Part shown: positions 9,068 to 45,900 of the stretch, one piece after another | Position numbering within the stretch: position 1 is the first letter of the stretch | How the letters are laid out: each line of letters opens with the position of its first letter | NCBI GenBank assembly: GCA_965235115.1 | Contig: OZ249436.1 | Coordinates: 38,566,001-38,630,000, forward strand | Origin: Laetmonice hystrix | Lineage: Eukaryota | Length of the DNA stretch: 64,000 nucleotides | Reading direction: 5' to 3' | Notes under the pieces: model-generated | Databases searched by the model: none | What the model was told of the DNA's origin: nothing | Seen by the model: the letters and a program-made list of their open reading frames with translations, nothing else | Position numbers and translations under genes: made by a program

Positions 9068-9374
9068 TTGTACCATGGTCTGGTGGTGACATACACACAC
9101 ACACACATGTGTGTGTGGGTGTAGGGCAATAAACAGCTCAGTACACACCCACACACAAATTTGCGTGTGTGTATTAAATACAAAAACTTTTTGTATTTAA
9201 TACAAAAACTTTTTGTATTTAATACAGAAAGTTTTTGTATTTAATACAAAACCTTTTTGTATTTAATACAAAAACTTTTTGTATTTAATACAGAAAGTTT
9301 TTGTATTAAATACAGAAAGTTTTTGTATTTAATACAGAAAGTTTTCGTATATATACAGAGAGTTACTCTTGCAT
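9068..9374 (+). repeat. Dispersed element: conserved head, (CA)n/(TG)n tract and a ~22-bp AT-rich tandem array
   Basis: Near-identical copy at ~26500-26760 (+) and a reverse-complement copy of the array and tail at ~18888-19078. Confidence 0.75.
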
Positions 9375-18679: not shown

Positions 18680-19510
18680 ATTGAGACGAGGCCGGACATT
18701 AAAGGGTGTCATAAAAGCGCGTGTCAACGAGGACACCAGACACAGAAGGGCGGTGTAGTTGCAAGGTTCCCAATGAAAGGGGTCACATGAACCGCAAAGG
18801 AATTTGACATATAATAAGCAAATGGACAGTTAATGAGATGTTAGTAAGTTGTTAGATTCTTTGAAGTGTGATACAGCAATTAGATATGCATGAGTAACTT
18901 TCTGTATATATACGAAAACTTTCTGTATTAAATACAGAAGCTTTCTGTATTAAATACAAAAACTTTCTGTATTAAATACAAAAACTTTCTGTATTAAATA
19001 CAAAAACTCTCTGTATTAAATACACAAACTTTTTGTATTTTTTTTTATACAGAAACTTTTTGTATTAAATACAAAAAATTGTCACTGCATTTGGTGCATT
19101 TTTTAATTTTCTTAAATAAAAAATGCAAAGACGCATTTTTTCCCCCATAAAAACGTGTTTTCGTTCAACGAGACCTGGAGTTTCACTAATTTTGTCCATT
19201 TAATGTCTCTTGCCTTATGTCCTAGGTCATGGCATAACAAGTTTGAAGGCTCCCTCTGCAATATCTTCGACGTTATCGACAATTTCATTGAATTTGAGAC
19301 GAATTTCAAAAAGGATTTTTACCTAGCTCCGTATTGTGCAAGATTTGGACAGAATAGAACATGGCCGCCGTTGAGTAGGTCAGCGATTTCTGGCTCCTCG
19401 GATTATACGGGTTACGAGCTTCCAGGGACGGAGCTAACATACTAATTCAGTTCCAAATCACTGAAGTAAGTGTGGACCTATTGTTTCTTAGTTTAAAAGA
19501 CAATGTGAAT

Positions 19511-20851
19511 ATGTCTAAATCTACAAAATCAAGCAAATCACGTACGGTCGAGGAGGACAATGGCGATAATGGAGAGCAGTCTGGAGAACCCACCATGTCG
19601 GACATTATGAAGGAACTAAGTAAAATGCAGACTAAAAGTGATCGAGCCAAAAAGCAACTAAATGATCGCCTTGATAGTATAAACAAGCAACTATCAACTC
19701 ATGTCGAGAAAAGTGCGAAGGTCTCCAGAGAGTTAAATGACAAAATTGCAGAATTGACTGCTCGTGTTGTGAGTGAAACAGCTGAAAAACAGGCGCTGTC
19801 AGCGGATCTGGACCAAACAAAGCTCAAGTGTACACTACTTGAAATGAAGGTTGACCTCCTTGAGAAAAGAGTCGAGGGCCTCGACGAAGAAAAGAGACGA
19901 CTAAATATAGTAATTGATGGTATTCCAGAAAGTGACGCAAAACATATTAAAACTACGATTGGGGAACTGTTCGAAACTCTAAGCCTGCCTTTTGGAACAA
20001 ATGATACGGAAAGTATCTATCGCCTGGGCGCCAAACCACCGTCAGGGAAACCGAGAAGTGTCCTCGTCAAGCTCAGGTCAACTTCGCAGAAAAGCGACAT
20101 TTTCAAGAATGTGCATAGACTTGCCAACAATCGAGCCTGGAAAGGTATACACATCAATGATGACCTGCCCCCCAAACAACAAGCCGAAAGACGTGACGCC
20201 CGCAGCATTGTGGCGTTAGCACGTGCGAAAGGTTTGGGTTGCAAACAAAAGGGCTCTGCAGTATTGTTAGAGGGTGTCCGCTATAATCCACGAGAGTTTA
20301 ATTCCCTCCCGCATAACTTGTCACTGGAAGCAGCCAAAATAGTTCAGGTACCAGACGGTTTGGCCTTTCAGGGGCACCATGCATACCTCAGCAATATGTA
20401 TGCCATTCCCGTCCAGTACGCAGGAAACACTTTCCCTAGCGCCGAATCAGCGTATCAAAGCACATGTGCCAGGGTGCATGGGGAGGAAGCATTAGCTTTG
20501 CAAATACAGGCCGAGAGTGATCCATACGTGGTTAAAAGATTGTCCCGGCGTGTTCGAACCAGCGATGAATGGAACCTCAAGAAAGTGACCATAATGAAGG
20601 AAATTGTCGAATCAAAGTTCGACCAGAATGACACCATACGTGAAAAACTTCTGAAAACTAAGGGACAGCTCTTTGAAGCTACTACAGACAGTGTGTTTGG
20701 TTGCGGCTTCACACTCGGTCAACGTAACAGGATAAGCGCGGACAACGTCATCTCTGGAAACCACTTGGGCCTGATCCTTGCCAAATACAGAGACACCTAC
20801 AGCATCAACAACGCGGAGCCTACAGCACAAGCACCACCAAAATCGAAGTAG
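19511..20851 (+). CDS. LINE ORF1p (446 aa from ATG 19511): coiled coil, L1-type RRM/CTD-like region, C-terminal NADAR (YbiA-like) domain
   Basis: Heptad-rich N-terminus. ORF1-type motifs RRLNIVIDGIPE, IYRLG..PRSVLVKL, GIHINDDLP. NADAR motifs from ~20360: YLSNMY, FPSAESAYQ, EWNLKKVTIMKEIVESKFDQN, LLKT, LFEATTDSVFGCG, GNHLGLILAKYRD. Confidence 0.88.
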   Translation: MSKSTKSSKSRTVEEDNGDNGEQSGEPTMSDIMKELSKMQTKSDRAKKQLNDRLDSINKQLSTHVEKSAKVSRELNDKIAELTARVVSETAEKQALSADLDQTKLKCTLLEMKVDLLEKRVEGLDEEKRRLNIVIDGIPESDAKHIKTTIGELFETLSLPFGTNDTESIYRLGAKPPSGKPRSVLVKLRSTSQKSDIFKNVHRLANNRAWKGIHINDDLPPKQQAERRDARSIVALARAKGLGCKQKGSAVLLEGVRYNPREFNSLPHNLSLEAAKIVQVPDGLAFQGHHAYLSNMYAIPVQYAGNTFPSAESAYQSTCARVHGEEALALQIQAESDPYVVKRLSRRVRTSDEWNLKKVTIMKEIVESKFDQNDTIREKLLKTKGQLFEATTDSVFGCGFTLGQRNRISADNVISGNHLGLILAKYRDTYSINNAEPTAQAPPKSK

Positions 20852-20876
20852 CGTTCCTATTGTTTATGTAGTAATA

Positions 20877-21551
20877 ATGACCACTACAATTAACAGGTTT
20901 ATTATCTTAGGCGATTCAAGAACTAAACATTTCGGGAAATTATTGAAGCACCATAACTTCCAACCCAATACAGAAGTAGTGTTAGAGACATACCCGGGTG
21001 CCACAATACTTGATGCGGCACGGCGCTTCCTGCGTAGTAACACCCACGTGTCGCTCACCGGGGTGAACGCGTATATCGTCCTGGCAGCAGGGGTCAACAA
21101 CCTTACAAGGCTCGACCGATCCTATGACGGTTCGAGGCGCATTGTCCGGCCAATCTTTAATGACATACCTGATATGGTTGACTCCTTAACAGACAGATAC
21201 ACTGAGGCTAAACAGATGTTGACTGAGGCAGGGTATCGATGTATCATTTGTGAGCTGACAGGTCTGGATGTGAATAGGTACAATAGGGCAACAACAAATT
21301 ATATTAAACTCCAAGAAATTATCGACGAAGGGGTACCAATTCTGAACAGAGCCATATCTGCTCTGAATTACGATGACTGCCTGCCTACCCCGTTTCTACA
21401 AGACTCAATCCATCACAAAGTAAAGAAGACAGACGTTTGCCGGAAAACGAAATATGCTAAATTAAGTGACGGTCTTCATCCCGATGAGAAAACTGCTGGA
21501 CGCTGGTTGGAACAAATACTGAAAGCCATTAACAAGATTACCAAAAAATAG
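20877..21551 (+). CDS. LINE-encoded SGNH/GDSL hydrolase (esterase), 224 aa from ATG 20877
   Basis: All four SGNH blocks are present: ILGDS, YPGA, AAGVNN, DGLHP. The ATG is 25 nt after the ORF1 stop. The frame is open back to 20778 and is +1 relative to ORF1. Confidence 0.85.
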   Translation: MTTTINRFIILGDSRTKHFGKLLKHHNFQPNTEVVLETYPGATILDAARRFLRSNTHVSLTGVNAYIVLAAGVNNLTRLDRSYDGSRRIVRPIFNDIPDMVDSLTDRYTEAKQMLTEAGYRCIICELTGLDVNRYNRATTNYIKLQEIIDEGVPILNRAISALNYDDCLPTPFLQDSIHHKVKKTDVCRKTKYAKLSDGLHPDEKTAGRWLEQILKAINKITKK

Positions 21552-21552
21552 T

Positions 21553-22352
21553 GGGTCTGGTCCGTATGGACAACCCTCTACCTCTGAATGTACTCCCCTA
21601 TGACATGATGGACTTCATAAGTATAAAGTTTGATGTGTGTGTCTAAGGTGGCTGGGCGTGGGTGTGCGTGTGTGCGTGTGCGCACTGCTTGCGGGTCTGG
21701 TCCGTATGGACACCCCCCGCTTGCTTTGTGTGCATGTATCACCTCACACAATCAATATGACTCTAGCCCCGAATTGTTTGAACTCGCATCTGTCTATTGA
21801 ACGAATCCGTGTGTCTGGTCCGTATGGACAACCCTCTACCTCTGAATGTACTCTCCTATGACATGATGGACTTTATAAGTATAAAGTTTGATGTGTGGGT
21901 CTAAGGTAGCTGGGCGCGTGTGTGTGTGTGTGCGCGCACTGCTTGCAGGTCTGGTCCGTATGGACACCCCCCGCTTGCTTTGTGTGCATGTATCACCTCA
22001 CACAATCAATATGACTCTAGCCCCGAAATGTTTGAACTCGCATCTGTTTATTGAACTAATCCGTGTGTCTGGTCCGTATGGACAACCTTCAAACTCTGAA
22101 TGTACTCTCCTATGACATGATGGACTTTATAAGTACAAAGTTCGATGTGTGGGTCTAAGGTGGCTGGGCGTGGGTGTGTGTGTGCGCGCACTGCTTGCGG
22201 GTCTGGTCCGTATGGACAACCCTCTAGCTCGGAATGTATTCCACTGTGACTTGACAGACCTTATAAGTGTTTACGATAGTTTGTTGTGCGGGTGCAAAGG
22301 GTGTGTATGCGCGGCTGCATACTGTTTGTTGGATCTGGTCTGTACGGACACC
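21553..22352 (+). repeat. ~255-bp tandem repeat (~3 copies) in the LINE inter-ORF spacer
   Basis: GTCTGGTCCGTATGGACA occurs at 21555, 21695, 21813, 21949, 22067 and 22201, with a degenerate copy at ~22333. Full-unit periods are 258 and 254 bp. Confidence 0.9.
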
Positions 22353-22658
22353 TCCCACCTATTGTTATACATGTATTATTCCCTATCTGCTTGTTTTGTA
22401 TGAATATATCTATTATGATTATTATCTAATTCTGCTCCTGAAACACAAGGTACGAGGAGCCACTTACTATAAGTGTTAAGGTCTAATTATTGACCATGTG
22501 TACATGTTTGTACATATTGTCATGGTTTGAGCAAGTTCTACTTGTCTATAAACCGTTTATACCATCACCCTCATCCAAATTCATCCTCACTCACTATTTA
22601 ACCCGATTAGCAAATGAAATTCCACGGTGCTATGTACTCACTAGTTTCTCTACTGTGA

Positions 22659-25529
22659 ATGGCCAACATGGATCATGCAATAAGTAGCTGTAATGATTTA
22701 GCCGCTATCAAGGGCCTGAAAATTGCACATCTGAATGTCAGAAGCCTTCCTGACAAAATTGATCAATTAAGAATTCTACTACTGAATGAACCGGTAGATA
22801 TTATGTGCATCTCTGAAACCTGGACGAATGATAACTATACACCAGCCTTATTGGAAATACCAGGTTATGAACTTACTCTGTATAACCGTACTACACGTAA
22901 TGATCAAGGCAATCCTGAAAGAGGTGGAGGCATAGGTTATTATGTTAGATGTCAATCTAATTTTTCAGTTACCCCTTTACATGCCTTGAACATTTGTGAG
23001 AACTATATGGAAAGTTGCTGGATTAACATTTGCTATAAGTATTCTAGACCTTTGACACTGGGGATAATATACAGGCGGCCCTCTGGTTCCCTTGAAAACT
23101 GCCTAGAGGCACTTCATGAGATGCTTAATTCTATTCCATCGGGTAATGATATTATGATGATCGGAGACTTTAACATTGATTTTGCTAAAAATAATAACAA
23201 TTCTAGGAAACTTAAAGAATTAGCACGCGAGAGATCTCTGAAACAGTTGATTAAAACACCTACCAGAGGAACACATTATACAAGTACAACTATTGACCTA
23301 ATATTCGTAAAGGCCGATCACATTGTCCAGAGTGGCACAATTCCCTGTGGATTAAGTGATCATAATATAATTTTTGTTATCAAAAAGAAAATACAACCTA
23401 CACATACGAGTGCAACCTTTCAAGGACGAAGCTACAAACACTTGGACATTCCTAACTTACAAGCACGTATATCAGCCTTGGACTGGTCACCTTTCTATGA
23501 ATGCTGTGATCCTACACTTAGTTGGGATATTATGCTAGGTAATATAATGTCCGTCACCGATCTGCTATGTCCCCTCAAAGAAATAAAGATAAAAAAGGTT
23601 AAACAACCGTGGATTAACAACCTTTTACTTGAACTAATGAATGATAGAGATGCTGTTCTGAAGCGACATGAGCAGACAAAAGACTCGGCTGACTGGGACT
23701 TGTATAAAAGGCTGAGAAACGAGGCTAAGAGAGGAGTCCGTGAAGCTAAAGAAGAGTTCATAATTGACAATCTTGTGAAACACGAAGGTGACCACAAAAA
23801 GTTCTGGAAACAGATAAATGATCTATTTCCTCGCTCTGGTAAGAACAATGCTACTTTCAGACTGATTGAGCCAAATAGCAATACTGAAGTTGATGAAAGT
23901 AAGACTGCTGATTATATCAACTCATTTTTTGTGAATATTGGTCCTAACCTTGCCCAGCACTTCAGAGAACCCTGGGATACGGATATGGTCAGGTCAAACC
24001 TAGAACTGCCAACTATGGTTACCACTGAAGAGGAGGTTAAGAAGCTAGTTAAAGAAATTAACATATACAAATCCTCTGCTATTAAGAACATTTCTTCGAA
24101 AATTCTCAAACCTGCATTCCTAATCCTAATACCTCAACTCACACACTTGTTCAATCTATGCCTTACACATGGATTATTTCCTGATAGCTGGAAGGTTGCT
24201 ACAGTCATTCCACTACAAAAAGATGGTGATAAGTCGGATGTGGGAAACCTAAGGCCAATCTCGTTACTTCCTCTGCCAGGGAAGATGTTAGAAAGGGTAA
24301 TCCATGCAAATTTAATGCCTTTTCTCACAGAAAATAACCTAATATCTGAAAAACAAGGTGGTTTTAGGCCTGGTTTTTCAACCACTAGAAAAATAGCGGA
24401 CTTAACTGATGACATATACGAAGCTATGAATAATCAAGAAATTACTGTGGCAGTCTTTATTGATTTTAAAAAAGCTTTTGATACGGTTGATCACGAAATT
24501 CTTCTCAGGAAACTAGACTTACTTGGTATTAGGAATATAAACCTTAACCTAATAACTAACTATCTATCCAACAGGAAACAACAGACCTTGGCAAATAATG
24601 TTATGTCAGATACTGCAAACATCACGTTTGGGGTCCCCCAAGGCTCTGTTTCTCGGTCCGCTATTGTTTCTATTGTACGTGAATGATTTACCAGACTGTA
24701 TTCAAAACGGACGTTCGCAATTATATGCTGATGACACAACTGTCTACCAAAAACACAGTAATGTATATTGTGCGGTTCAGAGCCTTCAAGATGACCTTGA
24801 CCGTTTAATGCATTGGTGCAACCTGAATAAATTAACGATCAATGTTAAAAAAAACTAAAGCTATGATCTTCACTACTAAACAAAGAAAGAAAAGGCTTCC
24901 GCCAATCAATCTGACATTAGGCAATGAGCGACTCGCTATAGTAGACTCGTATAAGTACCTGGGACTTACTCTAGACAGCACACTTAATTTTGAAAACCAT
25001 CTTAAAAATATGGTAAAAACCATAAGTCACAAACTATTTATGCTAACTAGGCTACGTCGACTGTTAACTCAGGCTGCTGCCGAAAGAGTCTATAAAACAA
25101 TGATTTTACCATACTTTGACTATGCAGACATCTTCTATGAGGCATGTTCACAAAACAAACTCGATAAGTTACAAAGGATCCAAAATCGGTCTCTTAGATG
25201 CATAGCTGGTGTCAACCAAAAATCATCTTTCCACTGATGAATTGCATGAAAAGTTAAATCTATGTAAGCTAATTACTAGAAGAAAACAGCATCTTGCGAA
25301 CTTTATGTTTAAAAGATCATCGGACCCCCACTATATAGACAATAGAAACCTAATAACAAGAGAACATAGGAAAAAGCTCATGGTAGTGACTAAACCTAAT
25401 TTAGAAAAGTTCAAAGACTCCTTGGTGTATAAAGGCTCTAAACTTTGGAATAGCCTAAGTATGGAACACCAAGTATGTGCATCATATAAACTTTTTAAAT
25501 CCAAAACAAAGAACTGTATTGTAGATTGA
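22659..25529 (+). CDS. LINE ORF2p, APE endonuclease plus reverse transcriptase (~955 aa if three +1 frameshifts are corrected)
   Basis: Endonuclease motifs HLNVRSL, CISETW, GDFNID, TIDLIF, SDH. RT motifs RPISLL, QGGFR, IDFKKAFDTVDH, GVPQGS(V)LGPLLF, YADD, YKYLG. Frameshifts at ~24650, ~24850 and ~25220. Confidence 0.92.
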
Positions 25530-25779
25530 AGGAATGTGTATGTTTGTCCCCTGTATTTGGCCCTATTAAGTTGACATGTAATTTATGTGTATCATGGCAT
25601 TTCCCCCCTGTACAGATGCTATAATCACCCACACATCTCATTATCATCTCACTCTTCTATCATACCTATGTAATAGATAGTATCGAGGATAAGGTATTAG
25701 GGAAACGCGTGACTATTGTAGGAGGTTTACCAGGAAACAGGCTTATAGCCTTGTGTATATCTTCTTCAATAAAGATCAT

Positions 25780-25812
<33 letters not shown>

Positions 25813-26760
25813 CAGTCAAATTCGGGTTCTAGAGGTTGAAATTGTCTAGAAACTTCCAATTTTAAGTAGTCTCTCAGGGATGGTCACGAAAATCGATTTC
25901 TAGCCACATTTAGTAGCCTACCTGGGGCCCACGGCCTACATAGCTGGTCTTCTGGTGCACAGGGTTACATGACATTATGATGCAAGAGCTACCCCCAGGC
26001 ACTGCTCAGAGCATCCTCAGTGACACTTCGGGACCCTGTCACCATGGTGATCTATAATTAGACCAGCGCCACCACCAGTGGTGTCACTTGGTCTGGGGCA
26101 AGTTTACTATATAGCGCCACCACCATCTGTGCCAGAACCGGTATACTTTTACACTACTCATGGTAATGACTTCGACGTTGATTGTAACCTGAAGTCGGCC
26201 GCTTTGAAAGTGTAGGCCTATATAATGGCTTCAGCATATAATCGAAAGCATAATACACTGGCGCAGGACCAGTCCGGGGGATCTTGTGACGGGGGGGAGG
26301 GCGTGAGGATCGGAAAACTTGAACTCCATCATTTTTCCAATAATTATCCCCGATAAAGCAAAAATAAATTTAAAAAACAATTTTAACACAAATTACTATG
26401 GGAGGTATTTTCAGGACACTTCATGAGCAGAATTAAAGCCTTTAATCCTTGCCTCTGTGATAGGCCTCGCAATACTCGGCCTATTGCCAAAGCTACACAA
26501 ATGTACCATGGTCTGGTGGTGACATACACACACACACAAATATATGTGTGGGTGTAGGGCAATAAACAGGTCAGTACACACCCACACACAAATTTGTGTG
26601 TGTGCGTGTATTAAATACATAAACTTTTTGTATTTAATACAAAAACTTTCTGTATTAAATACAGAAACTTTTTGTATTAAATACAGAAACTTTCTGTATT
26701 TAATACAAAAACTTTTTGTATTTAATACAGAAAGTTTTCGTATATATACAAAAACTTTTT

Positions 26761-27032
26761 GGGGGCCTCGGGTGGCCGAGTGGTCTAAGGTGTCGGCTCC
26801 ATCATGACACCTAGGACCATCGCCTCACACCGCTGCGACCCGGGTTCGATTCCCGGCCTGGGCTGCATGTGTGAAAGGTTTGTCAGTCAGTTCCTTCCCG
26901 AAGGTCGGTGGTTTCCTCCGGGTACTCCGGTTTCCTCCACCAAGAAAAACTGACTTTCATCTCATCTTCACCGCCGTGATATGACCCTGGCTGTTGCAAG
27001 GCGTAAAACCCCAAATACCCACCCACCCACCC
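26761..27032 (+). mobile_element. tRNA-derived SINE with a V-SINE-like central domain
   Basis: A box TGGCCGAGTGG and B box GGTTCGATTCC. Core GGTTTCCTCCGGGTACTCCGGTTTCCTCC. (ACCC)n tail. AAAAACTTTTTG on both sides is a possible TSD, but it also matches the host array. Confidence 0.85.
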
Positions 27033-27156
27033 AAAAACTTTTTGTATTTAATACAAAAAGTTTCTGTATAAAAAAAATACAAAAAGTTTTTGTATTTAAT
27101 ACAGAAAGTTTTTGTATTTAATACAGAAATTCTGAAAAAAATAACCATGTTATTAC

Positions 27157-27985
27157 CGGGGATAATTATTGGAAAAATGATGGAGTTCAAGTTTTCCGAT
27201 CCTCACGACCCCCCCCCCCCCCCCCCGTCACAAGATCCCCCGGACTGGTCCTGCGCCAGTGTATTATGCTTTCGATTATATGCTGAAGCCATTATATAGG
27301 CCTACACTTTCAAAGCGGCCGACTTCAGGTTACAATCAACGTCGAAGTCATTACCATGAGTAGTGTAAAAGTATACCGGTTCTGGCACAGATGGTGGTGG
27401 CGCTATATAGTAAACTTGCCCCAGACCAAGTGACACCACTGGTGGTGGCGCTGGTCTAATTATAGATCACCATGGTGACAGGGTCCCGAAGTGTCACTGA
27501 GGATGCTCTGAGCAGTGCCTGGGGGTAGCTCTTGCATCATAATGTCATGTAACCCTGTGCACCAGAAGACCAGCTATGTAGGCCGTGGGCCCCAGGTAGG
27601 CTACTAAATGTGGCTAGAAATCGATTTTCGTGACCATCCCTGAGAGACTACTTAAAATTGGAAGTTTCTAGACAATTTCAACCTCTAGAACCCGAATTTG
27701 ACTGTTGTCCAAATCTTGCACAATACGGAGCTAGGTAAAAATCCTTTTTGAAATTCGTCTCAAATTCAATGAAATTGTCGATAACGTCGAAGATATTGCA
27801 GAGGGAGCCTTCAAACTTGTTATGCCATGACCTAGGACATAAGGCAAGAGACATTAAATGGACAAAATTAGTGAAACTCCAGGTCTCGTTGAACGAAAAC
27901 ACGTTTTTGTGGGGGAAAAAATGCGTCTTTGCATTTTTTATTTAAGAAAATTAAAAAATGCACCAAATGCAGTGACAATTTTTTT
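27157..27985 (-). repeat. ~830-bp inverted duplicate of 19073-19351 joined to 25812-26352 (the LINE-free allele of the target region)
   Basis: Near base-for-base reverse-complement match. Identical spurious ORFs appear at 19112-19309(-) and 27748-27945(+). Confidence 0.93.
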
Positions 27986-31348: not shown

Positions 31349-32212
31349 TAAATTTTTAAATCTAGTGAACCTTTTGAATGATTAATGTGATAGGCTCATT
31401 GGCCGTGGACCCCCAAGGAGCGGTTTTATTCCTTCACTCCACTAATTTCCAGTGGACAAAACACAATGTACTAAAGGTGGACTGACAATTGTTTGAGTAT
31501 ACTTAATTGGATTTGGGGTGGGGGCTAAATATTGTCTAATGTAAAATCTTACACATATTATCTTGAATATAATGTATCAACCAAAACATTCTCAATCCAC
31601 TGCGCCATGTGTCAAGAGCGGTCTTCACTGCTGACCTGTTGACTCATTCACGCCAGTCGAGGGCGTGTCGAGGATATTTTTATAAAACGGGGAGGGGGAG
31701 TCAAGGCTTGTAAGTATAAAGGGATCCAAAAGTGGCGAAGTTAGGGGACTTGATTAGAAAACATTTCGTTGAAAAGGGAGAAACATTGTGTGAGAGGAAA
31801 GGACAGGCATACTGTTATTCGGCTCCCAATCATTTCCACTCCTGTTACAAATCTGGAAAACATTTTTGCTTACACCTATACATGTCCCCTAGTCAACCAA
31901 ATTATGACAATAAAAATGTTTAAGCATCAACATTTTTAGTGCATAATTCCATTAGTTTGTTCCACAGGATACAACAGGAGGACCTAGGCCTATACAATAC
32001 CCAAACCTTAGACATAATCATAATCAACAAACAATACGCTTGATATACATGTAAACAAATATTTAGACTAGAGTTTAAAGTTGTGCTAGAAAAAAAAACA
32101 AGAATTGTGTTAACCCTGTGACATCATTAGGCCTACACGTATAGGCCTATATAAAAAGAATACACATGTACCGTTAATACTTTGCTATCTTAAAAACATT
32201 TTTCCATTTCAG

Positions 32213-33475
32213 ACTATCTGCAGATGGATGCTTGTAGCTATGACACTCATCGCCTTGCTCGGAATTCACAAAATAAAAAAAGTTTATCATCTAACCGTTC
32301 CTTTTCAACTTCACTCTAAATCCCAACCGGCTACCTGTCGTCGCCAGGACAATCTTTATTTCCTCAAGATGCACAAAACCGGATCGACAACAATGTTCAA
32401 TATTTTGAACCGAATTGCTCTCAGACGACATTTACGAATGGCTACATACTCAAGAGCGCCTTACAATCGTGGGCCCCAATCTTTCGTGAGGTCTCTCATT
32501 CCTAAGTTCACCGTTGGAAAAAGTAGGAAGTATAACATGCATGGAGAGCATAGCTATTATAGCAAACAGGACATCTACAAAATGTTGGTATCTCCACATT
32601 CAAATGTCACATTCTTACGTCATCCCAATACTCTGGTACGGTCTTATCTGTATGCAAAGGGTTTCGACAGGTTACTAGGACTTAAGGAGCCAGATATCCT
32701 GAAAGATTTCTTTGAAAAAATACATCGACACCCCAAGACTGCTGGTCGTGCAAAACTTGTAAGGAATTCAATGACAGACCAATTACTGATTGGTGCGAAG
32801 TTTAATAATTCTATAGTGGATATTGATCGAGATTTTGTTATCGGACTGAATGAATATTACGATGAATCGCTCATCCTCATAAGGCGAAAACTTTGTTGGA
32901 CTTTACAAGATATAATATATGTTCCTTTGCGGTTGACACCGTACCCCGGCCCCGTTGACAAGACAAACAAGACTCTTCGCGAACTCGTATGTTCGTGGTC
33001 GAACTTAGACTGTCCACTGTATGAGTATTTCAACCAAAGTTTCTGGAGAGCTCTTCACAAGGCGGGACCACAGTTCTACGAGGAGGTCGCACATTTCAGG
33101 TTCATTCTGAAGAAAACCTTCACTTACTGCACATATGTACACGAAAGACTAAAAGGGCACACGGAAACGATCACAGAGCTCGAGGGAGAAATCGCACCTC
33201 TCGTGATACCGGGATCTCACTGGAACGACCAGTTCAGGATCGATGTCCTAGACTGCGCTTTGATGCGCGTTCCAGGATTCTCCTTTCCAACGCTGTCTTA
33301 TTACGTTCAAAATAAGGCCGAATGTGAATTAGTGAGACGCGATTCTGGAAAGACTTGCAAGATTGCCTACAAATATCATAAGGATATCTGCCAGTCGATT
33401 TGTTCTACTACCAATGATACCATGGATATGGTGCGAAATTTCCTTAAAGACGAACGGGTATATATGTGGAGATGA
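32213..33475 (+). CDS. GAL3ST: Galactose-3-O-sulfotransferase-like protein (type II Golgi membrane sulfotransferase), one large coding exon
   Basis: N-terminal hydrophobic anchor. 5'-PAPS-binding motif FLKMHKTGSTT, then FLRHP, IGLNEYYDESLILIRRKLCW, WSNLDCPLYEYFNQSFW. Acceptor TTTCCATTTCAG at 32212; in-frame ATG at 32228. Confidence 0.88.
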   Translation, partial: TICRWMLVAMTLIALLGIHKIKKVYHLTVPFQLHSKSQPATCRRQDNLYFLKMHKTGSTTMFNILNRIALRRHLRMATYSRAPYNRGPQSFVRSLIPKFTVGKSRKYNMHGEHSYYSKQDIYKMLVSPHSNVTFLRHPNTLVRSYLYAKGFDRLLGLKEPDILKDFFEKIHRHPKTAGRAKLVRNSMTDQLLIGAKFNNSIVDIDRDFVIGLNEYYDESLILIRRKLCWTLQDIIYVPLRLTPYPGPVDKTNKTLRELVCSWSNLDCPLYEYFNQSFWRALHKAGPQFYEEVAHFRFILKKTFTYCTYVHERLKGHTETITELEGEIAPLVIPGSHWNDQFRIDVLDCALMRVPGFSFPTLSYYVQNKAECELVRRDSGKTCKIAYKYHKDICQSICSTTNDTMDMVRNFLKDERVYMWR

Positions 33476-36940: not shown

Positions 36941-39900
36941 GTTGAATCATTATGTACACTGTCGGGAATACTCTGTGTTGATGGCGCGGATGGTCGCCGA
37001 GTCCAAGAACCACTTCGGTACTGGTCCTGCCAAACTATCTGCCGTTCACGATCGGTCTCCCGCCTCCGATGTTGCACCTGAAATTTGTTTAAATAGTAAT
37101 ATTTTATTAAGACAATTTCTTATAAATAATTTCAAATAAAGTAAAACGATAAAAATAACCTGGGGCCATTACCTCTTCCTCCTGCCTCAGTTTCATATCG
37201 TTGAGTGTCGACATGACGTGATCGAGCTTGTTATCATCACCATCCTCGTCGGTTTGTGACAGGCACAGAGCTCGGTTTAACGGGAAGAAGTCCAGCTTTT
37301 CCTGCTTCACCTAATGACACAGACATTACAAATACTTTAGCTCCTACTGTCTTTCATCCTATTAAAGTTATATTTACAGACTACCAAGGATATATTTAAA
37401 ATGCCTGAAGTGAATTTTTAAGTTCCTACCAAGTTTGCCACATGCATATCGACAGCTGTGTAATCGTTGGACTTGATATCATTCAAATGCAGTACGTAGA
37501 AAATGTAAGCCCACATGTTGTGGTCGTACTGGACATGGTGCCGGAACCCCTGGAATACACATGAGGAAACGTTAAACAGTTACAAGAACTTAACTTTAGT
37601 GTACCAAATCTCTGTAACACTTATTGAACTGAGGTTAAATTAGTATAAATATTCTTTGTTAAGGAATTCCCGCCATGCCAAAATTATATGTGTGTACATA
37701 CATGTCCCTCCTGTTCAAAGTCATAACAGTCACGGCTACAAATGAAGCAGGTGTCCCTCATATCCCGCTCGGCCGTCCACTGTCAATGACAATACAGACA
37801 TCAAATAAATCAGATATAAGGTCATAGGAGGTCATTGAAGGCGTAAGGAAGTTGAGTCTTCTCTGATATGCAGGAAAATGTCAGAAAAGTAAAAATTGAG
37901 GGAGTTATGATCGATCAGATACTACCCCCCCCCCCCCCCCAAAGGAAAATTAAAGAAGGAAAACAGAAGAAAGGTCATTCCATACTTGAAGCGAGATCAC
38001 TTTTCCGTTGTCCCATGCTATTATCGTTCTAATTTAGCCACGTGTGCTGCCTAGCACGTTGGACATTACCTTTCTGTCTCGGAGCTCGGAGAACGTGTCC
38101 ACAATGATACCGAAGATGACGTTAAGTGCGATCGTCGTGAAGAGGATGAAGAATGTCACCTGATATACGGTCAGCATCAGGAACATTCGGAACGACTTCC
38201 CGACTTCAGGTTGTTGGAATTTCTGTCAGAGGCGATACGCTCAAGGTGTAGTTTAAATCATTTAATAATAAATTATTAAAATTATACTTTCATCCACAAC
38301 GCCCTTGACGGAAGCCGTGACTTCATACAAACCTCTAAGACGTATGTACATGTATAAAACTATGCTGACAAAACAAATAACCGTTATTTCGTTTCCTCTT
38401 TAGTTTCACAAAAAAATCAGACCTATAGGTCCCAGTGGCGTATCCAGGGGGTTTCCAAGTATCCCGAACCCCCCCCCCCCCCTTGAATAAAAATACTATA
38501 TTAAGGACATTTTTGTAAAACAGTAGTGTAAAAAGTGCATTGTTTTAACCAAAGGGAATCTTCATATTTCCAAACAGGAGTAGACGTTCAGACATTGCAT
38601 TATCTGATTTTTTTTTCAATTTTCCAGAGGAGCATAGCATAAAGCCATCTCTGAAGTACCTAAACTCAGGACCCCCCCCCCCTCCCACCAATTTCTGGAT
38701 ATGCCCCTGGGTTCCATTTTACATTTTCCCATACAGTACCACTGTATCATCTACCAATCTGAGAATAAGGAGTAGGTCTCCTATACTAGCTTATACTTAC
38801 GTCAGCAATGTTCCCCACAACCCCGTACCGGATGACGGTGAGAACGCACTTGGCCAGCGAATGACAATAGAGCTCCGACGATGGGTCAAATATAGGTCGG
38901 AAGAACGCAAAGGCGATCAGCCCGTACAGATATATCAGGATTAACGCCATGAGCATGACCAACAGCAGGGAACGACCTGAAATAAAGGCGATCAGATCCG
39001 TACAGGTATATCAGGATTAACGCCATGAGAATGACCAACAGCAGGGAACGACCTGAAATAAAGGCGATCAGATCCGTACAGGTATATCAGGATTAACGCC
39101 ATGAGAATGACCAACATCAGGGAACGACCTGAAATCAGTGGTATTTCTATAATCATAACAGTTTCGGAGGAAACTGATTGTTAATAAATACGCGATACTT
39201 ACCTCATAACATATGAGAGACTTACAGTTTCTCGATTCCCAATGGTCAAAAAATTTAATAAAAGTGTTCTAAGTGAAACAAGAATGAGTTCCACCAGAAC
39301 TCCTGTCTATCTAACATATTCGGTGTATGGCTCCCTCTAGCGGAGATCCGCTGAATCGTGCGCCCCCTAGTGTCCATGTGACCTAGTAGTCAGATTTAAA
39401 TGACCACTAAGCGGGGAGGCGGGAAGGGCCTGACCCTCCTGACCACCAAGTTCACGCAATAGAACTGTAAAGGTGGTGTCTAATAGCCAAAAGGCAGCCT
39501 CGAGGAATTCGGCGAAGGTTACTCCATTAATAGGAGCCCAGGACGCAGAAATCGCCCGCACCTCAAGAACCTTAACACGATGAAACTGAAAAGACTTGGA
39601 CAAGGCCGCGTCTGCCCGAGTCATAGCTAAGCTAAAGCCTTCCACCTAGAAATGTAGCCGGCGTGATGTCGAGGGGTACGCACTCACCAAAAGACACGAC
39701 ACCCCCTCTAACAGGCAGCTCTACAGGCGCTCCTCATCATCCGGCCTGAGCTCGGAGCTCAGAGCCAGGGTCGGGTTGTTAGCCACAGAGTGTGGTAACA
39801 AAGGTCACAATGGAGGAACAGGGGCCAAAACGCGCTCCCCCGAAGGCAGTAAATTCCGACCACCTCAGCCCTGAGGTTAATGCTACAGGAACATGGTCTT

Positions 39901-42900
39901 TCAAGTACAACTTGGTGTACGGAAGACATAAGATAAATAAGGGGGGACGCAACAATGCGTTCAGTACCACCGACCAACTCCAGTAAGGGGCCTTCCTCGG
40001 CTTTACGGGCTCAAGAAATATCAAGTTGCGTCATAGCGCACTGAGTTCCCGTCAAGAGCTAAAGGAACCTCCGCCTGGTGCTGATGCATTTGCTGCAATC
40101 ACTGATCTGATTCCTCGCACGGCGGAGACCGACAACCCCCGAAGAAACCTGTCAAGCAGACAATCGGCTACTGACAGGGGGCGGTGAGATCAAAGTCATA
40201 TGTTCCCCTGCCCATTCAATAAGGAAGGCCCGCTGTCTCGATACGCAGCTTGCGAGGAGGGCCTATGTTTCTCGGCAATGCTCTGGGCCGCTTGTCCCGA
40301 GAATCCACGCTTCTCACCTCTGTTCCTGACAAGCAGAGGGGTGTAAATCGAAAATCTTCGGAGCTGAATGCCACTTCCCTCTCTAAAACAACAGATCGGG
40401 GTCATAAGGCAGGGATCGAGCCCAATCCTGCAACAATTCTGATATCTCTGTGAAACAAGGCCAACCCGGCCCATATTATGACTGGCCCAGACAGGCGCGT
40501 TTCGCGGCGCGTTCGAGACGCGTCGGCCATTTTTATGCACGCCTCGTGATGCACGCGTCCTGTGTGGGTCGCTAATCACGCAGGCGTCAGCCGTTTCTGA
40601 CGCACGCGTCGACTTTTTCACGCGCGTGACTGGCCCAGACAGGCGCGTTTCGAGGCGCGTCGCCCATTTTGACGCACGCCTCTTGACGCACGCACGCACG
40701 CACGCACGCCCCTGTGTGTCCCCGGTTTTAAACTTGCCCTGCACATGAAATGACGCACAACGTCACTCGGTGCTGGCGACACCACCAGAGGATGTCCCCG
40801 GTTATCCGGAATAGTAGCAGTGACCGAGTGTCCCTTTGATTTAACAGATAGGTCACTGCCATCCCAACTAACACACAACCTTTTCACAACGTTGAATAAA
40901 GTTGTAGTTTGGTCACTTCACAACGTTGTGTCTAACGAAACTACAACGTTGTGGCAACATAGAAAACCAAACAAATTTACGTAGCGTTATGGGAACGTTG
41001 TAGCAACGTAATATTGCTAGCTGGGATCGTACTGTCGGGGTGGATCAGGACTACTGATCGCGTCGGTAGCCAGGCGAAGTGATGAAGAGCCTAGGCAAAT
41101 TGCCTTTAATTCTAGACCATATATGTATCCGTGCCACACCCCGCTCCAACTATTTCGGAAATAGCTCCCCAACCTCCCTGAGATATCTGTGGAGAAGGGA
41201 AACATCCGGGATTAGATATTCCAAAGTACACCCCTCTGAAAAGTCTGTGGATCGATCCACCACTGGAGGAACTGCACCAGAGACCGAGGAAGGAGAACCC
41301 TGCACCCGCCGAGGAAATCCCTGCTCGGGCGCCACGCACTCAACAACGCAAACTTCATCAGTCACCCATGCAGTTTGCCAAGCGGTCCTGAGTTCAAAAA
41401 AGAAAACTCCGATAAACTGCAGACATAGCTTGTCGGTGCAACTTCCAGGCCTATACACTTCACCAGGTATATCCTCCATCCCAGGGGAGGTAAAACTGAG
41501 AGCAACTGGGTGGCTTGAACGGGCCACACCATGTAAGGCTGAAGCTCCATCCCTTCTGACCTGTCCAGCTTCCCAACTGTGTTGCCAGCTAGGTAAACTC
41601 GGACCGAACGGCAGACTACCAACTGGAAACATGGACTGTCGTTGGAACACTGAGAAACTTCTAGTGCAAGAAAGTGTCCTCGATGTCTATCGTGACGGCC
41701 CCGCCTCTTACCTATAGACACTGAGACATGCCACGTTTCTCGAGAACCCCTACGGGTTTAAGGAAAATAATTTCCGGGGCGGACTCACTACCGACCCTAA
41801 AGTGACGACTGCACCTTTCTCTCGAAGTTTCCTGATCTCTCCTATTCTTAGCTTAGAACTTAAGGAAACAGAAAGGGAGGGCCCTGCGAGAGCGAGCCGA
41901 CGCTCGACAAACTCCAGACGCAATCACTCCCTGAGAACAGACAGGGTCCAAGGAATCTGGTAATTGATGAAGCAAGCTCACCGCTTGTGTGCGCTTCGTT
42001 GTAAGCGAACGCTTAATTCCGAACCAAAATGTCCAGATCCAACTCAGGCTTATATCGCGAGACGGCTATGACAAACTGAGGACTTAGAGTCGAACCCCGG
42101 CGAAACAAGATGGAGTAGATAGGAATCAAAATCCAAACTCTATGTTGAGTGACGTATAAGGCCAGGGCCGCCCTAGTCCTATCGCCGAAAGATATAGCCT
42201 CCGGCGACTATAACCAAGGTCGGCCTAGATGGCCGCCGTCGTGACTAGGCGAACACGGTTTGCCTGAGCAAAGAAAGGGCACTTTGGAACTGAAACGGTC
42301 GAAGGCTCCTTCAGTCCAAGAGAAAGGTCCCCTGGGTCCAACCTAGAACCCCCTACCAGGAGGGTCCGAATGCAGAGTACATTCCGCCATAAAAAACGGA
42401 TTAACGGGGGTTGATCTCCCCTAACGTCCGACCGAAGTAGGGTACAAGGGGAAGGGATCCGTGAAAAGATCCATAGTTGGACAAACTGAGCGTAGATCCT
42501 CTACACCCCCCGAAACTCTGCCCGTAACCGTCTAGATATTGGCAACCAATCCATGCCAAATCGCCACAAATAACAGACCATATAGGACTATATATATATA
42601 TATACATATCCGGTGTGATTAACTCAAATTTTTGAGTCACCATGTTTTTCTCTGTCTCACATTTTAAAAACTGTATCAACATGCAGTTTTCCAGATAGTC
42701 TGATCTTTACCACCGTTTCCATAGACTACTCACAGCCATAGATGGCGCTACAAGGACTCTACCTCGTGCCATCAAGGTCCCCAAGCCAGTTTAAATAACT
42801 TCATGTGTGTCAGGCGGGGGGACAAAGAGAACAGGAAATTTTAGGATTTTCAAAAAAGCCGATTTAAAGATTTTCAAGGCTTACTTGACTTCAAGGCCCT

Positions 42901-45900
42901 GCGGAGACCCTGCAAGCATACAAGAGAGAGGCCGCCTCTAGCCTACTGACTCCCCCGATCCGCGAGGGAGGCGCGATTACGCTGCCTGGCCGACAGAGCA
43001 CTCCTCGATCGGTCGCGTAAGCCTAGGCCATAGGCCTATACTGATCGACATCAATTCTCTCATGGTCCCAAGATCTAGACCAGACCATGGTGACGACGCT
43101 GTCCTATGAAAACCCCAAAGTCTAGTGCGACGGCCACCTTGACCCGGGCAACGATCCTGAGATCGACGACCCGCGTGAAAGAGACGTTCCTAGGTACAGA
43201 CGATCGCGAACGCTCCCGATCTCGGTCTGGATGCCGTCTCGGGGATTAAATATACATAATATCGCCTGCACGATATCGTCTCAATGGTCTAGATGCGAGA
43301 GATATCTTCCTGGCATGTAGATCTCTAGCCAAGGCATCGATCTCGAACTCGATCTTTATTTCCTGATCTAGTCATTACGGGGAGATCGATCAACAAACAA
43401 AATCGTCTGTGCGATCTTGTCTCTAAATGCACTTAGTGCGAGAGAACTCTTTCCTCGCATGTATCCTAGGCCTAGATCTCTAGCTCTATAGGCACCGATC
43501 CTGATCCTTATCCCGATCCTGATCTGGATTCCGATCCTAACTGGATCTCATCGATCTCGAGCTCGACGGACCTGCCAAATCTTGTGCCTATCAAGCGGGG
43601 AAATCTTAACCCCAAAATTCGGAGTTCTCCCGCCTAAGCAGGAGTAACGATCTCGACCTCGAGCCAGGAACGATCTGGAGTAAGGCTCGGTGCCTGATCT
43701 TGATCAGATCGGATCAGATCGGGGGATCGAACCGCAGATCATCAAATGATCGACTGCCCGACATCGTCTCAGTGAGCCTATACGAGAGATCTCAATCCTC
43801 GCATGCCCGAGGCACTGAGGCCCGATGGCACATATTATGACCGATCTCAGGAAGAATCCCCGATCGTCTACGTGCGTCTGCGCGGCTCGCCGCGGCTGGC
43901 CCGGGTGGTCTCCTCGAGGAGACCACCGGACGCAGACGAGGGGGAGAACGGTCGCTCGAGCTGTGGCTCGAGGCGAACGCGAGTCTCCCCTCGCGTCAAG
44001 AGATCGATCCCGAGCCGACTCGCGCGGCTGGCCTCCTCGAGGAGACCACCGGACGCAGACGAGGGGGAGAACGGTCGCTCGAGCTCTGGCTCGAGGCGAA
44101 CGCGAGTCTCCCCTCGCGTCAAGAGATCGATCCCGAGCCGACTCGCGCGGCTGGCCTCCTCGAGGAGACCACCGGACGCAGACGAGGGGGAGAACGGTCG
44201 CTCGAGCTCTGGCTCGAGGCGAACGCGAGTCTCCCCTCGCGTCAAGAGATCGATCCCGAGACGCTGAACGTCTGCGTGTGATCGTCTCAACGGGCTTAAT
44301 TCCCATTCCTCGCGTGGGAAGCCCGAGGCACCGATCCCGAGACATTATCATTTCGACCCAGTGATCGGTGCCTACGCTGTACGCCACCCGCTGTGCGTGA
44401 TTGAGCGTATCAGACTGGTCAGGTGGGTGCGTAGGTCGAGGATCCATGACCTTACGCTTACCCACCTAGTCCTGCACGGGACTGACCAGCTGATTGAAAC
44501 GTGAGCGTGACGTCACACCCTTAGCCCCCCGGCGGGCGGGTGGGTGGGCGGGTGACACGCTTCATTGCCTGGAGCAAGCACAGTGTGCACCCCGGCTCAC
44601 TGCTGACCGTTCCGCCTGGTCAGACAAGGCCAACCGAGGAAAACTTGTCGGTCAACATGGCCTCGCTTACCTGGACTAACAGAGGCCGACAAGGAGTGTA
44701 TACCTGGCCCTTAGAATAACTCAGGGAACATGCTGAATAACTTCTACCACACAAGGAGGTAGTGCGTCTACCTATATTGGTAGACTACAAACAACAAATA
44801 GACAGGAATGACCAAAGGGAATACAGAACTATAAGGAAAAAACCACGGTACTCACGAAGACGTCCTGCGGTAGCAGTGGTCATTTCAAATCTGACTACTA
44901 GGTCACATGGACACTAGGGGGCGCACGATTCAGCGGATCTCCGCTAGAGGGAGCCATACACCGAATATGTTAGATAGACAGGAGTTCTGGTGGAACTCAT
45001 TCTTGTTTCACTTAGAACACTTTTATTAAATTTTTTGACCATTGGGAATCGAGAAACTGTAAGTCTCTCATATGTTATGAGGTAAGTAGAAGCGTATGTA
45101 ATTAACCCTTTGATTACCGTGCACAGGCTGAAGAGTGCAGCATGGTATTTTGGCCTAACCGTCGAACAGCGTGCACTTATAAATGCATAACACGCATTTA
45201 CATTATAAAACTCTGTCAGGGTCACCAATCATTTGCTTGGTTCGAACTTTCTAAGGCGTATTATGATATTTTAAATTTCGCGTGGGAGACTCTGTGGCGC
45301 AATCGGCTAGCGTGTAAAGGCTGGATCACACATAGCCGACCAGCCGACCGATGGTTTCAGCCGACGGTGCACCCGTCGGTTGGCTGTCGGCTGACTCTCC
45401 CGACCGACCGATGGTCAACCGATCCTCATTTACACTAAAAATTGGATTACATATAGCCGATTTTTCATCCGATTCGTCATCGGCTGGCCGTCGCTGATGT
45501 GTAATCAGGAATCGGCTGAGAGTCGGCTGGCTCAGCCGACGTCGGCGACCAGTCGGCTTCCCAACCGATTGAATCAAATCATTTTGATTTTGTCGGTTGG
45601 TCGGTTAGCGATCGGTTCAGTGGTGACTGAGGCGTTTTCAACCAAATGACGTTTGATCACGTCATGTGACTCGATGGTGTCCGCACAAATATATTATGGC
45701 AGAATACCATGGCTAGGTCGAAGTGTGACACCAAAAAGAGAGGGATAAACTTTTCGTGTGGCTACTCCAGCCCCGGAGGCTTCTGCCGACCGATAACCAA
45801 CGGATCATGCGATCAAGCGATAGCAAACCGATCATCAATTACATACAGCCGATTTCCAACCGATCCCACCGCCGATTGCTAACCGATCCTACATCCGATT

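Follow-up and report, generated by a model that had tools for sequence, protein, structure and literature searches.

A three-frame LINE in Laetmonice hystrix with a predicted SGNH esterase as a free-standing ORF beside an L1-type ORF1 carrying a NADAR domain

Organization of the locus

The window analyzed here, a 64,000-nt stretch of the Laetmonice hystrix genome (assembly GCA_965235115.1, contig OZ249436.1, positions 38,566,001 to 38,630,000 of the forward strand), contains at 19352-25811 on the + strand a LINE with three separate frames, which encode an ORF1 with a NADAR domain, an SGNH-fold protein, and an APE-RT protein. The element and its surroundings are organized as follows:

19073-19351, + strand: left flank, a host repeat split by the LINE (279 nt, 99.6% identity to the empty copy at 27706-27984, - strand)
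19352-19510, + strand: 5′ UTR
19361-19378, + strand: 5-codon uORF in the 5′ UTR, opened by what we take to be a YY1-like motif (19358-19368)
19511-20851, + strand: ORF1, 446 aa (coiled coil, L1-type RRM, CTD, NADAR)
20852-20876, + strand: intercistronic gap of 25 nt; the SGNH AUG shares nucleotides with tandem stop codons and a uORF of a single codon
20877-21551, + strand: esterase-fold ORF of the SGNH type, standing alone (224 aa, pI 9.3, without a coiled coil)
21551-22450, + strand: monomer array, a 254-bp dimer × 2.6 (21551-22222) plus two diverged units
22451-22658, + strand: unique remainder of the spacer
22614-22658, + strand: 14-codon uORF, its TGA stop directly 5′ of the ORF2 AUG
22659-25529, + strand: ORF2, APE endonuclease and reverse transcriptase (family length about 955 aa)
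25530-25811, + strand: 3′ UTR and poly(A) tail (AATAAA at 25768; A29 at 25784-25812)
25812-26356, + strand: right flank, remainder of the host repeat (98% identity to 27153-27706, - strand)
27153-27984, - strand: empty copy of the host repeat, representing the pre-insertion site

The LINE is a young, multi-copy, whole insertion in the host repeat. The flanks match the empty copy at 98-99.6% identity with a target duplication of 0-1 bp, and, at other copies of the host repeat, reads continue through position 19350 without the insert. This clean insertion with an empty allele, together with APE and RT in ORF2, the AATAAA signal and A29 tail, and the lack of terminal repeats, identifies the element as a LINE. 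Within the three informative read runs (X1, X2 and X3, which represent one sample, possibly the assembly's own source), contigs from X1 and X2 both begin exactly at 19354, as expected if the copies have a common 5′ end but different flanks. ORF1 and SGNH lie on one gap-free, unbranched read contig (19354-21448) of multi-copy depth; no single read contig covers the whole element, the 5′ half being joined to ORF2 only in the window assembly. All modules claimed in an earlier note on this DNA were recovered in place within 19352-25811. Locus searches found no relatives with the ORF1 alignment against metagenome contigs, with the SGNH alignment against viral contigs, or with ORF2 against metagenome, viral and prokaryote contigs.

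ORF1 and its NADAR domain

ORF1 comprises a helical coiled coil (~aa 29-131), an RRM (132-216), a CTD extending to ~275, and a NADAR domain (289-428). The first three characterize it as a type II (L1-like) ORF1p, and the ORF1 model matches human L1 ORF1p 2yko (Foldseek E 1.2e-5), 2w7a (VIA Z 8.8, rmsd 3.6, 87 aligned) and 2ldy (VIA Z 7.9, rmsd 10.3, 139 aligned). The C-terminal part belongs to the YbiA subfamily of NADAR by both domain and fold: residues 289-428 match Pfam NADAR PF08719 with E 1.7e-21, above the curated cut-off, and the model matches NADAR structure 8bau (Foldseek E 8.7e-6; VIA Z 13.4, rmsd 3.0, 150 aligned).

The NADAR domain retains E312, K342, R346, E389 and D393, of which E312 and E389 correspond to the ribose-binding glutamates E43 and E125 of 8BAU (a numbering that rests on an inferred two-residue offset) and are kept in 123/127 and 122/127 relatives, respectively. 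The essential lysine of E. coli C7 NADAR (K95; K50 in 8BAU) aligns to Cys319 of ORF1. Lys or Arg occupies the equivalent position in 109 of 127 relatives, and a basic residue is missing from this column in 14 of the 18 tips of ORF1's own clade (support 0.97). Because the lysine essential in bacterial NADARs is Cys319 here, hydrolase activity of the domain appears doubtful, and the lineage displays a NADAR with an altered active site. The chances are about even that the domain would bind base-linked ADP-ribose or a related N-glycoside, with hydrolysis of guanine-ADP-ribose being poor or the substrate changed.

The RRM-CTD part and NADAR occur together in 127 of the 152 aligned ORF1 relatives, and NADAR in LINE ORF1 is already in print for oyster Tx1 in the accessible text of PMC12477816; we therefore rejected NADAR in ORF1 as the novelty of this element.

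A free-standing SGNH ORF

The blocks GDS (12-14), G41, GVNN (72-75) and DGLH (198-201) are all present in the SGNH ORF with residues S14, G41, N74, D198 and H201, as the earlier note had maintained, and the fold is supported by a model of medium quality (pLDDT 70), in which it starts at residue 5. This model matches the SGNH hydrolases 3mil (E 3.8e-6) and 4rw0 (Z 15.0, rmsd 3.0, 172 aligned), and the fold plus blocks I, II, III and V with S, G, N and D-x-x-H place the protein in the SGNH hydrolase superfamily. Pfam returned no match for the ORF alone; Lipase_GDSL_2 was matched by seven of the ten members of the SGNH alignment (E up to 0.5, best 2.5e-6). A PDB sequence search with the ORF or its profile yielded chance matches only, and ESM Atlas matches were to unnamed or partly GDSL clusters. 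The product is thus a predicted esterase, and we lean slightly towards an active enzyme that would bind anionic membranes like the ZfL2-1 esterase, yet was captured independently.

These results divide the broader claims made for the module set. Of the 'two hydrolase modules', the SGNH module stands with its catalytic blocks intact, while the NADAR one is doubtful. ORF1-NADAR, being widespread, does not serve as a marker of a 'distinct LINE lineage'; what survives is the separate SGNH cistron beside an RRM-type ORF1-NADAR.

ORF2 and clade

ORF2 matches Exo_endo_phos (E 4.7e-13) and RVT_1 (E 6.9e-20 and 6.6e-7). In the window copy the frame is shifted by +1 at three homopolymer runs, near 24650, 24850 and 25230; these shifts either belong to this copy alone or are slips of the assembly, because the ORF2 read contig (3,266 letters aligned to 3,269 window letters, 3 gaps) is without them. 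The two C-terminal ORF2 fragments gave no Pfam match, the last 107 aa contain no CxxC-type knuckle, and ESM Atlas matches of ORF2 were to generic RT clusters without clade signal.

ORF2 of the L1/Tx1 clade is about 1,250 aa in length with a C-terminal CCHC knuckle domain (human L1 ORF2p has 1,275 aa), whereas the window ORF2, at ~955 aa, is without one, and a Tx1 assignment was rejected on these grounds. Members of the CR1 group (CR1, Zenon, L2, Crack, Daphne and Rex1) have a short ORF2 without a C-terminal zinc knuckle and little or no target duplication. The ORF2 length, the 0-1 bp duplication and the lack of a C-terminal Pfam match are compatible with the CR1 group, albeit not diagnostic, and the element probably belongs to the CR1/L2 group. 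Zenon itself was rejected given the two ORFs upstream of ORF2, although the poly(A) tail is shared.

Expression of the three frames and the spacer array

The reading that we favor, and consider reasonably probable, is that of a three-frame LINE in which reinitiation downstream of ORF1 likely yields the esterase as a distinct protein, one that likely assists the RNA-protein particle by binding membranes. Transcription would, with high probability, be driven by a Pol II promoter that lies inside the element at its 5′ end, and ORF1p can be strongly expected to trimerize and coat the RNA, like L1 ORF1p. SGNH would probably be translated by termination-reinitiation over the 25-nt gap, which is two codons in a sister family.

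The spacer between the SGNH stop and the ORF2 AUG (21552-22658) has the 1.1-kb length previously given for it (1,107 nt); that it is mostly a monomer array, across which read depth doubles, is added here. The array starts at the SGNH stop, which abuts the first unit without a gap, and comprises seven units of ~118-140 nt. A near-palindromic core of 16-17 nt stands at the start of every unit and is invariant across all seven, and divergence is greatest in the 3′-most units. The promoter monomer arrays of mouse L1 likewise combine an invariant core with 3′-most units that are the most diverged. An Rfam search of the spacer gave only two matches, with E about 2 and far below the cut-off, and no hammerhead core was found in the spacer on either strand. 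Folding was not clearly better than that of shuffles for the 254-nt unit (z -1.6), the unique spacer (-1.6), the 3′ UTR (+0.7) or the 5′ UTR (-1.2); one segment of the array, 21660-21779, folds well (z -3.8, 40 crude shuffles).

Contig depth, which is not equal to copy number, was 3.4x that of the flank contig for the ORF1-SGNH contig in X2 (2.9-4.4 in X1 and X3), 6.3-8.9x for the ORF2 contig at 22203-25471, and higher still at the 3′ end (9.5-13.4x). Depth changes stepwise at the array instead of along a slope, because the 5′-most ORF2 contig in X3 (depth 252) does not lie below the 3′ one (199). This doubling hints at ORF2-only short forms; GC content is 0.46 in the 5′ part versus 0.38, however, and library bias could therefore give part of the step. 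Conceivably, though we would not expect it, the array would act as a second internal start for an ORF2-only RNA, giving ORF2p that mobilizes the long RNA in trans via the shared 3′ tail, and itself being copied as the short form. Such an array may account for the tolerance of a long spacer ahead of ORF2. Between position 22200 and the ORF2 start codon there are 11 AUGs, out of 36 in the spacer as a whole, and a short RNA started in the array would therefore still not be readable by simple scanning. The complete bipartite arrangement, in which a long RNA (ORF1p-NADAR plus an independently captured free esterase) and an array-promoter ORF2-only RNA would both retrotranspose, we regard as unlikely.

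A more plausible alternative, although short of an even chance, is that one full-length RNA serves all three frames, with ribosomes arriving at ORF2 through reinitiation or in an IRES-like manner, and with the extra ORF2 depth arising from RT stalling in the array (5′ truncation) or from GC bias. 5′ truncation is usual for LINEs and depth rises again at the 3′ end; in addition, part of the array folds well, the uORF stop adjoins the ORF2 AUG, and the array promoter is itself putative. On the other hand, depth shows no slope along the 3.3-kb ORF2 contig and is greater at the 5′ end in X3, and the seven units share the pattern of core and divergence of mouse L1 monomer promoters.

The depth doubling, the zero gap between the SGNH stop and the first unit, and the GC difference could also reflect a chimera, in which the ORF1-NADAR and SGNH cassette of another LINE was recently joined by template switching to a poly(A) element that had no ORF1 and carried the array at its 5′ end, making the long form a passenger and the short form autonomous; CR1-group elements that lack ORF1 and have arrays of 5′ subunits, and ORF1-less Zenon with its poly(A) tail, are described in the available part of PMC13343379. 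This is improbable, given that the long form has spread to several near-identical copies that keep their frames intact and begin at one 5′ position, and that the cassette is old, its order being kept in a family about 60% identical. In addition, according to the available text of PMC7140322, the AT content of ORF1 is generally below that of ORF2 in L1, CR1 and Daphne.

The ORF1-SGNH junction

In the window family, the SGNH ORF begins 25 nt past the ORF1 stop in a different frame, and the junction in read contigs is without gaps relative to the window. The sister family, which is ~60% identical, has SGNH directly after NADAR (the order being known for the NADAR-SGNH part); sister records P0010 and P0011 retain S, G, N, D and H of SGNH at 58-59% identity. 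Six of the seven distinct contig sizes of sister ORF1 clusters 1-2 recur among the eight of SGNH cluster 7, equal size being only a proxy for the same contig, and the seventh ORF1-cluster contig is P0020, which itself reads from NADAR into SGNH. The sister NADAR and SGNH frames are in phase. P0015 reads across in the same way, while P0002, P0019 and P0021 terminate at that codon, such that the junction codon is Trp in 2/5 records showing it and a stop in 3/5.

These in-frame fusions, and the SGNH frame of the window, which is already open some 100 nt before its AUG and runs over the end of ORF1, raise the alternative of one fused protein made by stop-codon read-through or frameshifting, with the esterase as an ORF1p domain. 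We consider this very unlikely: the window-family frames differ across a gap-free junction, both Trp-reading records are broken elsewhere, P0015 alone contains SGNH sequence among the best 150 ORF1 relatives, and longer SGNH-bearing proteins numbered none among 8,000 candidates (a weak search by the tool's own note). That the SGNH ORF is a nested insertion, which the earlier note had considered, or an assembly artifact of one copy is scarcely credible despite the homopolymer slips in assembled ORF2, and was rejected: ORF1 and SGNH share a single unbranched contig of uniform multi-copy depth, no poly(A) follows the SGNH stop, and the sister family has the same order.

An element that retains both a separate esterase and an RRM ORF1 under selection argues for an esterase job other than RNA chaperoning. 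Moreover, as its own cistron the esterase could be removed without touching ORF1p, making the role of a LINE esterase directly testable. If the bipartite arrangement were true, the RRM chaperone and the esterase would not be redundant, and some ORF1-less CR1-group elements with 5′ subunits would be short forms of longer, overlooked elements.

Comparison with known systems

A close precedent is the type IV arrangement typified by ZfL2-1. According to the available text of Schneider et al. 2013 (PMC3905857), ORF1p in these CR1, L2 and RTEX elements has a coiled coil followed by a C-terminal esterase domain, without an RRM, and the ZfL2-1 enzyme is active and liposome-binding. That arrangement and the window LINE share a basic SGNH protein with intact catalytic residues upstream of APE-RT; in contrast, the window esterase is its own cistron, lacks a coiled coil, and lies next to a full L1-type RRM ORF1. 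The transposon-specific H191 of ZfL2-1 (four before N195) corresponds to Ala70, as counted from the block III Asn and not directly aligned, and to Leu, Ala or Val in the eight other rows covering the column. A ZfL2-1-type element was rejected on the basis of the separate ORF, the fold beginning at residue 5, and this replaced signature His. The ZfL2-1 esterase is not among the structural matches listed for the SGNH model, an absence that does not exclude a match. In the same accessible text, a Repbase survey turned up no ORF1p that combined an esterase with an RRM, and the two were suggested to be possibly redundant or mutually exclusive (PMC3905857). A separate SGNH cistron does not contradict this, because the statement concerns one protein.

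Crassostrea gigas Tx1 LINEs share NADAR within ORF1, but the essential Lys is replaced in the window LINE, and an esterase has 0 occurrences in the accessible text of PMC12477816. L2- and CR1-lineage elements with a transposase-22 (type II) ORF1 (Metcalfe and Casane 2014, PMC4120745) similarly pair an L1-type coiled coil-RRM-CTD ORF1 with a Jockey-superfamily-like ORF2; however, none of the subgroups in Table 1, within the part of that paper available, has an esterase plus Tnp22 or RRM, and none has NADAR. As described in the available portion of PMC13343379, some CR1-group elements are without ORF1 and have 100-500 bp 5′ subunits, and Zenon is without ORF1 and poly(A)-tailed. The window LINE resembles these in its array before ORF2 and in its tail, but differs in having two intact ORFs and a defined 5′ end before the array. 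A GDSL ORF3 occurs in bdelloid Vesta LTR retrotransposons and Athena/Terminon elements (available text of PMC5408684); it is likewise a free-standing SGNH/GDSL ORF without a coiled coil, captured independently of the CR1/L2/RTEX esterases, although these elements are LTR or Penelope-like in place of APE-type LINEs, and their description in that text includes no NADAR. The three-frame layout was not found described in the openly accessible papers that were searched. NADAR in a LINE ORF1 is already known, and the novelty of this element lies in an RRM-type ORF1 accompanied by an esterase that has a cistron of its own.

Element layout and insertion

The LINE spans 6.46 kb of the plus strand (19352–25811), and the modules that the earlier note read there (ORF1-NADAR, SGNH ORF, spacer and APE-RT) are all present, in the following arrangement:

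from 19352, +, 5′ UTR, 159 nt
19511–20851, +, ORF1, 446 aa
between 20851 and 20877, +, ORF1–SGNH gap, 25 nt
20877–21551, +, SGNH ORF, 224 aa, in a frame different from that of ORF1
between the SGNH ORF and ORF2, +, spacer, 1,107 nt
22659–25529, +, ORF2
after 25529, +, 3′ UTR, 254 nt with AATAAA, then a poly(A) tail

The flanks are two halves of a host repeat, an uninterrupted copy of which lies at 27153–27984 (−); the LINE therefore inserted as one unit. Its target duplication is 0–1 bp, the ambiguity being due to the A tail, and no further pieces of the LINE occur within the 64-kb window. The host repeat itself (~830 bp) forms two inverted copies that are 98–99.6% alike (19073–19351 plus 25812–26356 versus 27153–27984), and read depth over parts of it reaches thousands, compared to ~50 for the contig at 26054–26297. 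AT-rich minisatellites of 22 bp lie near the repeat (18896–19077, 26607–26761 and 27032–27129), with another at 9170–9357, and a putative SINE-like stretch with a tRNA-like head recognized by eye (26770–27010) sits between two of them and adjoins the repeat. Elsewhere in the window, a 453-codon open frame of the galactose-3-O-sulfotransferase family (32114–33475, +; Pfam E 5.9e-35) probably belongs to a host gene as one of its long exons. A 5.9-kb element at 39196–45088 has 205-nt inverted ends that are 100% complementary and a 123-bp internal tandem repeat; three fragments of it gave no Pfam match, and its broken minus-strand frames near 39367–40030 are reminiscent of a tyrosine recombinase as in DIRS-type retrotransposons.

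ORF1 and its NADAR domain

The AlphaFold model of ORF1 (pLDDT 74.6) comprises a 100-residue helix, then a region resembling human L1 ORF1p (2yko, E 1.2e-5; 2w7a, Z 8.8, rmsd 3.6, 87 aligned), then a NADAR domain (Pfam match at aa 289–428, E 1.7e-21; 8bau, Z 13.4, rmsd 3.0, 150 aligned). Relatives were collected by searching a profile against 1.84 billion representatives, from which the best 150 matches were taken, less two proteins of >1,000 aa and with four earlier matches added (n = 152). Within this set, 127 of 152 cover >70% of both the RRM-CTD and NADAR parts, so that the fusion is common, and NADAR in Tx1 LINEs of the Pacific oyster is briefly reported in PMC12477816; the novelty therefore does not lie in the fusion. 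Tails after NADAR are short (≤30 aa) in 78/127 relatives and long (>100 aa) in 39/127, the window ORF1 and its nearest kin being of the short-tailed form.

Because NADARs undo guanosine ADP-ribosylation of RNA, according to PMC11833690, counter-defence is a natural guess. The active site is altered here, however. Residues E43, K75, R79, E125 and D130 of the NADAR structure 8BAU are kept as E312, K342, R346, E389 and D393 (8BAU numbering by a two-residue offset that we infer), and the alignment places Cys319 where 8BAU has K50. In E. coli C7 NADAR the corresponding residue, K95, is required to hydrolyze guanine-ADP-ribose, although Arg can replace it in vitro (PMC11543638). Among the 127 relatives, 109 have K or R at this position; neither is present in 14/34 of the closest versus 4/93 of the more distant, and in 14 of the 18 tips of the clade holding the window protein (FastTree support 0.97). 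Against the counter-defence guess, the NADAR of this sub-lineage would probably bind rather than cut, or act on another substrate.

A separate SGNH cistron shared by the family

The SGNH ORF itself has no Pfam match, and 7 of the 10 members of its alignment match Lipase_GDSL_2 at E up to 0.5 (best 2.5e-6). SGNH hydrolases fill the structural match lists of its model (pLDDT 70; 3mil, E 3.8e-6; 4rw0, Z 15.0, rmsd 3.0, 172 aligned). The catalytic blocks reported previously are in place (S14, G41, N74, D198 and H201) and are kept in the full-length relatives P0010 and P0011 at 58–59% identity; the ORF is without a coiled coil.

Read contigs were mapped to the region from three runs, all of a single sample that may have supplied the assembly; a fourth run was small and covered little of it. 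In X2, one gap-free contig (19354–21448) crosses ORF1 and the SGNH ORF at 3.4x the depth of the flank contig, and the corresponding ratios in X1 and X3 are 2.9–4.4. Contigs of X1 and X2 both start at 19354, as contig breakage should give when the 5′ end is common to several copies and the flank differs between them. Position 19358 carries a YY1-like motif, a kind of motif with a role in L1 promoters, and a 5-codon uORF in strong context (19361–19378) falls inside it. The ORF2 read contig aligns 3,266 letters to 3,269 of the window with three gaps, which match three +1 shifts of the window copy, all in homopolymer runs; the family ORF2 is therefore likely intact at ~955 aa. The NADAR-then-SGNH order is the same in a sister family whose ORF1 is 56–66% identical to that of the window: taking equal size as a proxy for the same contig, six of the seven distinct source-contig sizes of its ORF1 clusters recur among the eight of its SGNH cluster, and the seventh ORF1 record runs from NADAR directly into SGNH. 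The layout thus belongs to the family. What the earlier note observed is confirmed, and its interpretation is supported in part, including the separate SGNH cistron.

Spacer array and proposed translation of the SGNH ORF

An array of a 254-bp unit (2.6 copies), itself a dimer of 118–140-nt monomers, begins at the SGNH stop; seven monomers share a near-palindromic core, the two 3′-most being the most diverged, and neither an Rfam family nor a hammerhead core was found in the spacer. Read depth 3′ of the array is 6.3–8.9x flank, about twice that of the 5′ part, although contig depth is not copy number, and GC differs between the halves (0.46 vs 0.38). Truncation of reverse transcription at the repeat would give the same step. 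In the single run where ORF2 is divided between contigs, depth shows no gradient across it. ORF1-less members of the CR1 group carrying 1–5 subunits of 100–500 bp close to the 5′ UTR have been described (PMC13343379). We prefer, on weak grounds, to read the array as a second internal start that would yield ORF2-only RNA and copies; the 11 AUGs between 22200 and ORF2 count against it. A 14-codon uORF (22614–22658), whose stop abuts the ORF2 AUG, may be either significant or coincidental. Since L2-type ORF2 proteins recognize the 3′ tail of their own RNA and are able to work in trans, ORF2p from the short RNA could still mobilize the long one. The boldest proposal, a bipartite LINE of which a long and a short form both move, is speculative and rather improbable.

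At the sister-family junction, two codons before the SGNH Met, three records have a stop and two have Trp. The conserved feature appears to be a stop with an AUG close behind it; the two frames are in phase in one of the families and differ in the other. Termination-reinitiation would account for this better than read-through does, and is likely the way in which the SGNH ORF is translated after ORF1.

Comparison with known elements

The element is an APE-type LINE and works like one. Its short ORF2 lacks a C-terminal knuckle and its target duplication is near-absent, which would probably place it in the CR1/L2 group rather than in L1/Tx1. Its ORF1 sets it apart from Zenon. Searches of the openly accessible literature on the three-cistron layout and its components gave no description of it; an unremarked entry may exist in Repbase, Dfam or subscription journals. 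Table 1 of Metcalfe and Casane pairs no subgroup's esterase with Tnp22 or RRM (PMC4120745), and Schneider et al. found no esterase-bearing ORF1p with an RRM (PMC3905857). Each module is already known. What is unusual is that the esterase forms a cistron of its own next to an RRM-type ORF1, an arrangement that lends itself to testing.

The element does not fit the ZfL2-1 type, as in zebrafish: there the esterase lies within ORF1p and carries a signature His, whereas here it is a separate ORF with Ala instead. The ZfL2-1 paper (PMC3905857) describes H191 and S228 as common only to transposon esterases, and reads this as evidence of a single origin. Counting back four residues from the Asn of block III gives the site corresponding to H191, which is Ala in the SGNH ORF and Leu, Ala or Val in its kin, making capture independent of ZfL2-1-type esterases likely on residue comparison. 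In this the SGNH ORF would resemble the GDSL ORFs of bdelloid retroelements, for which independent capture is reported in PMC5408684.
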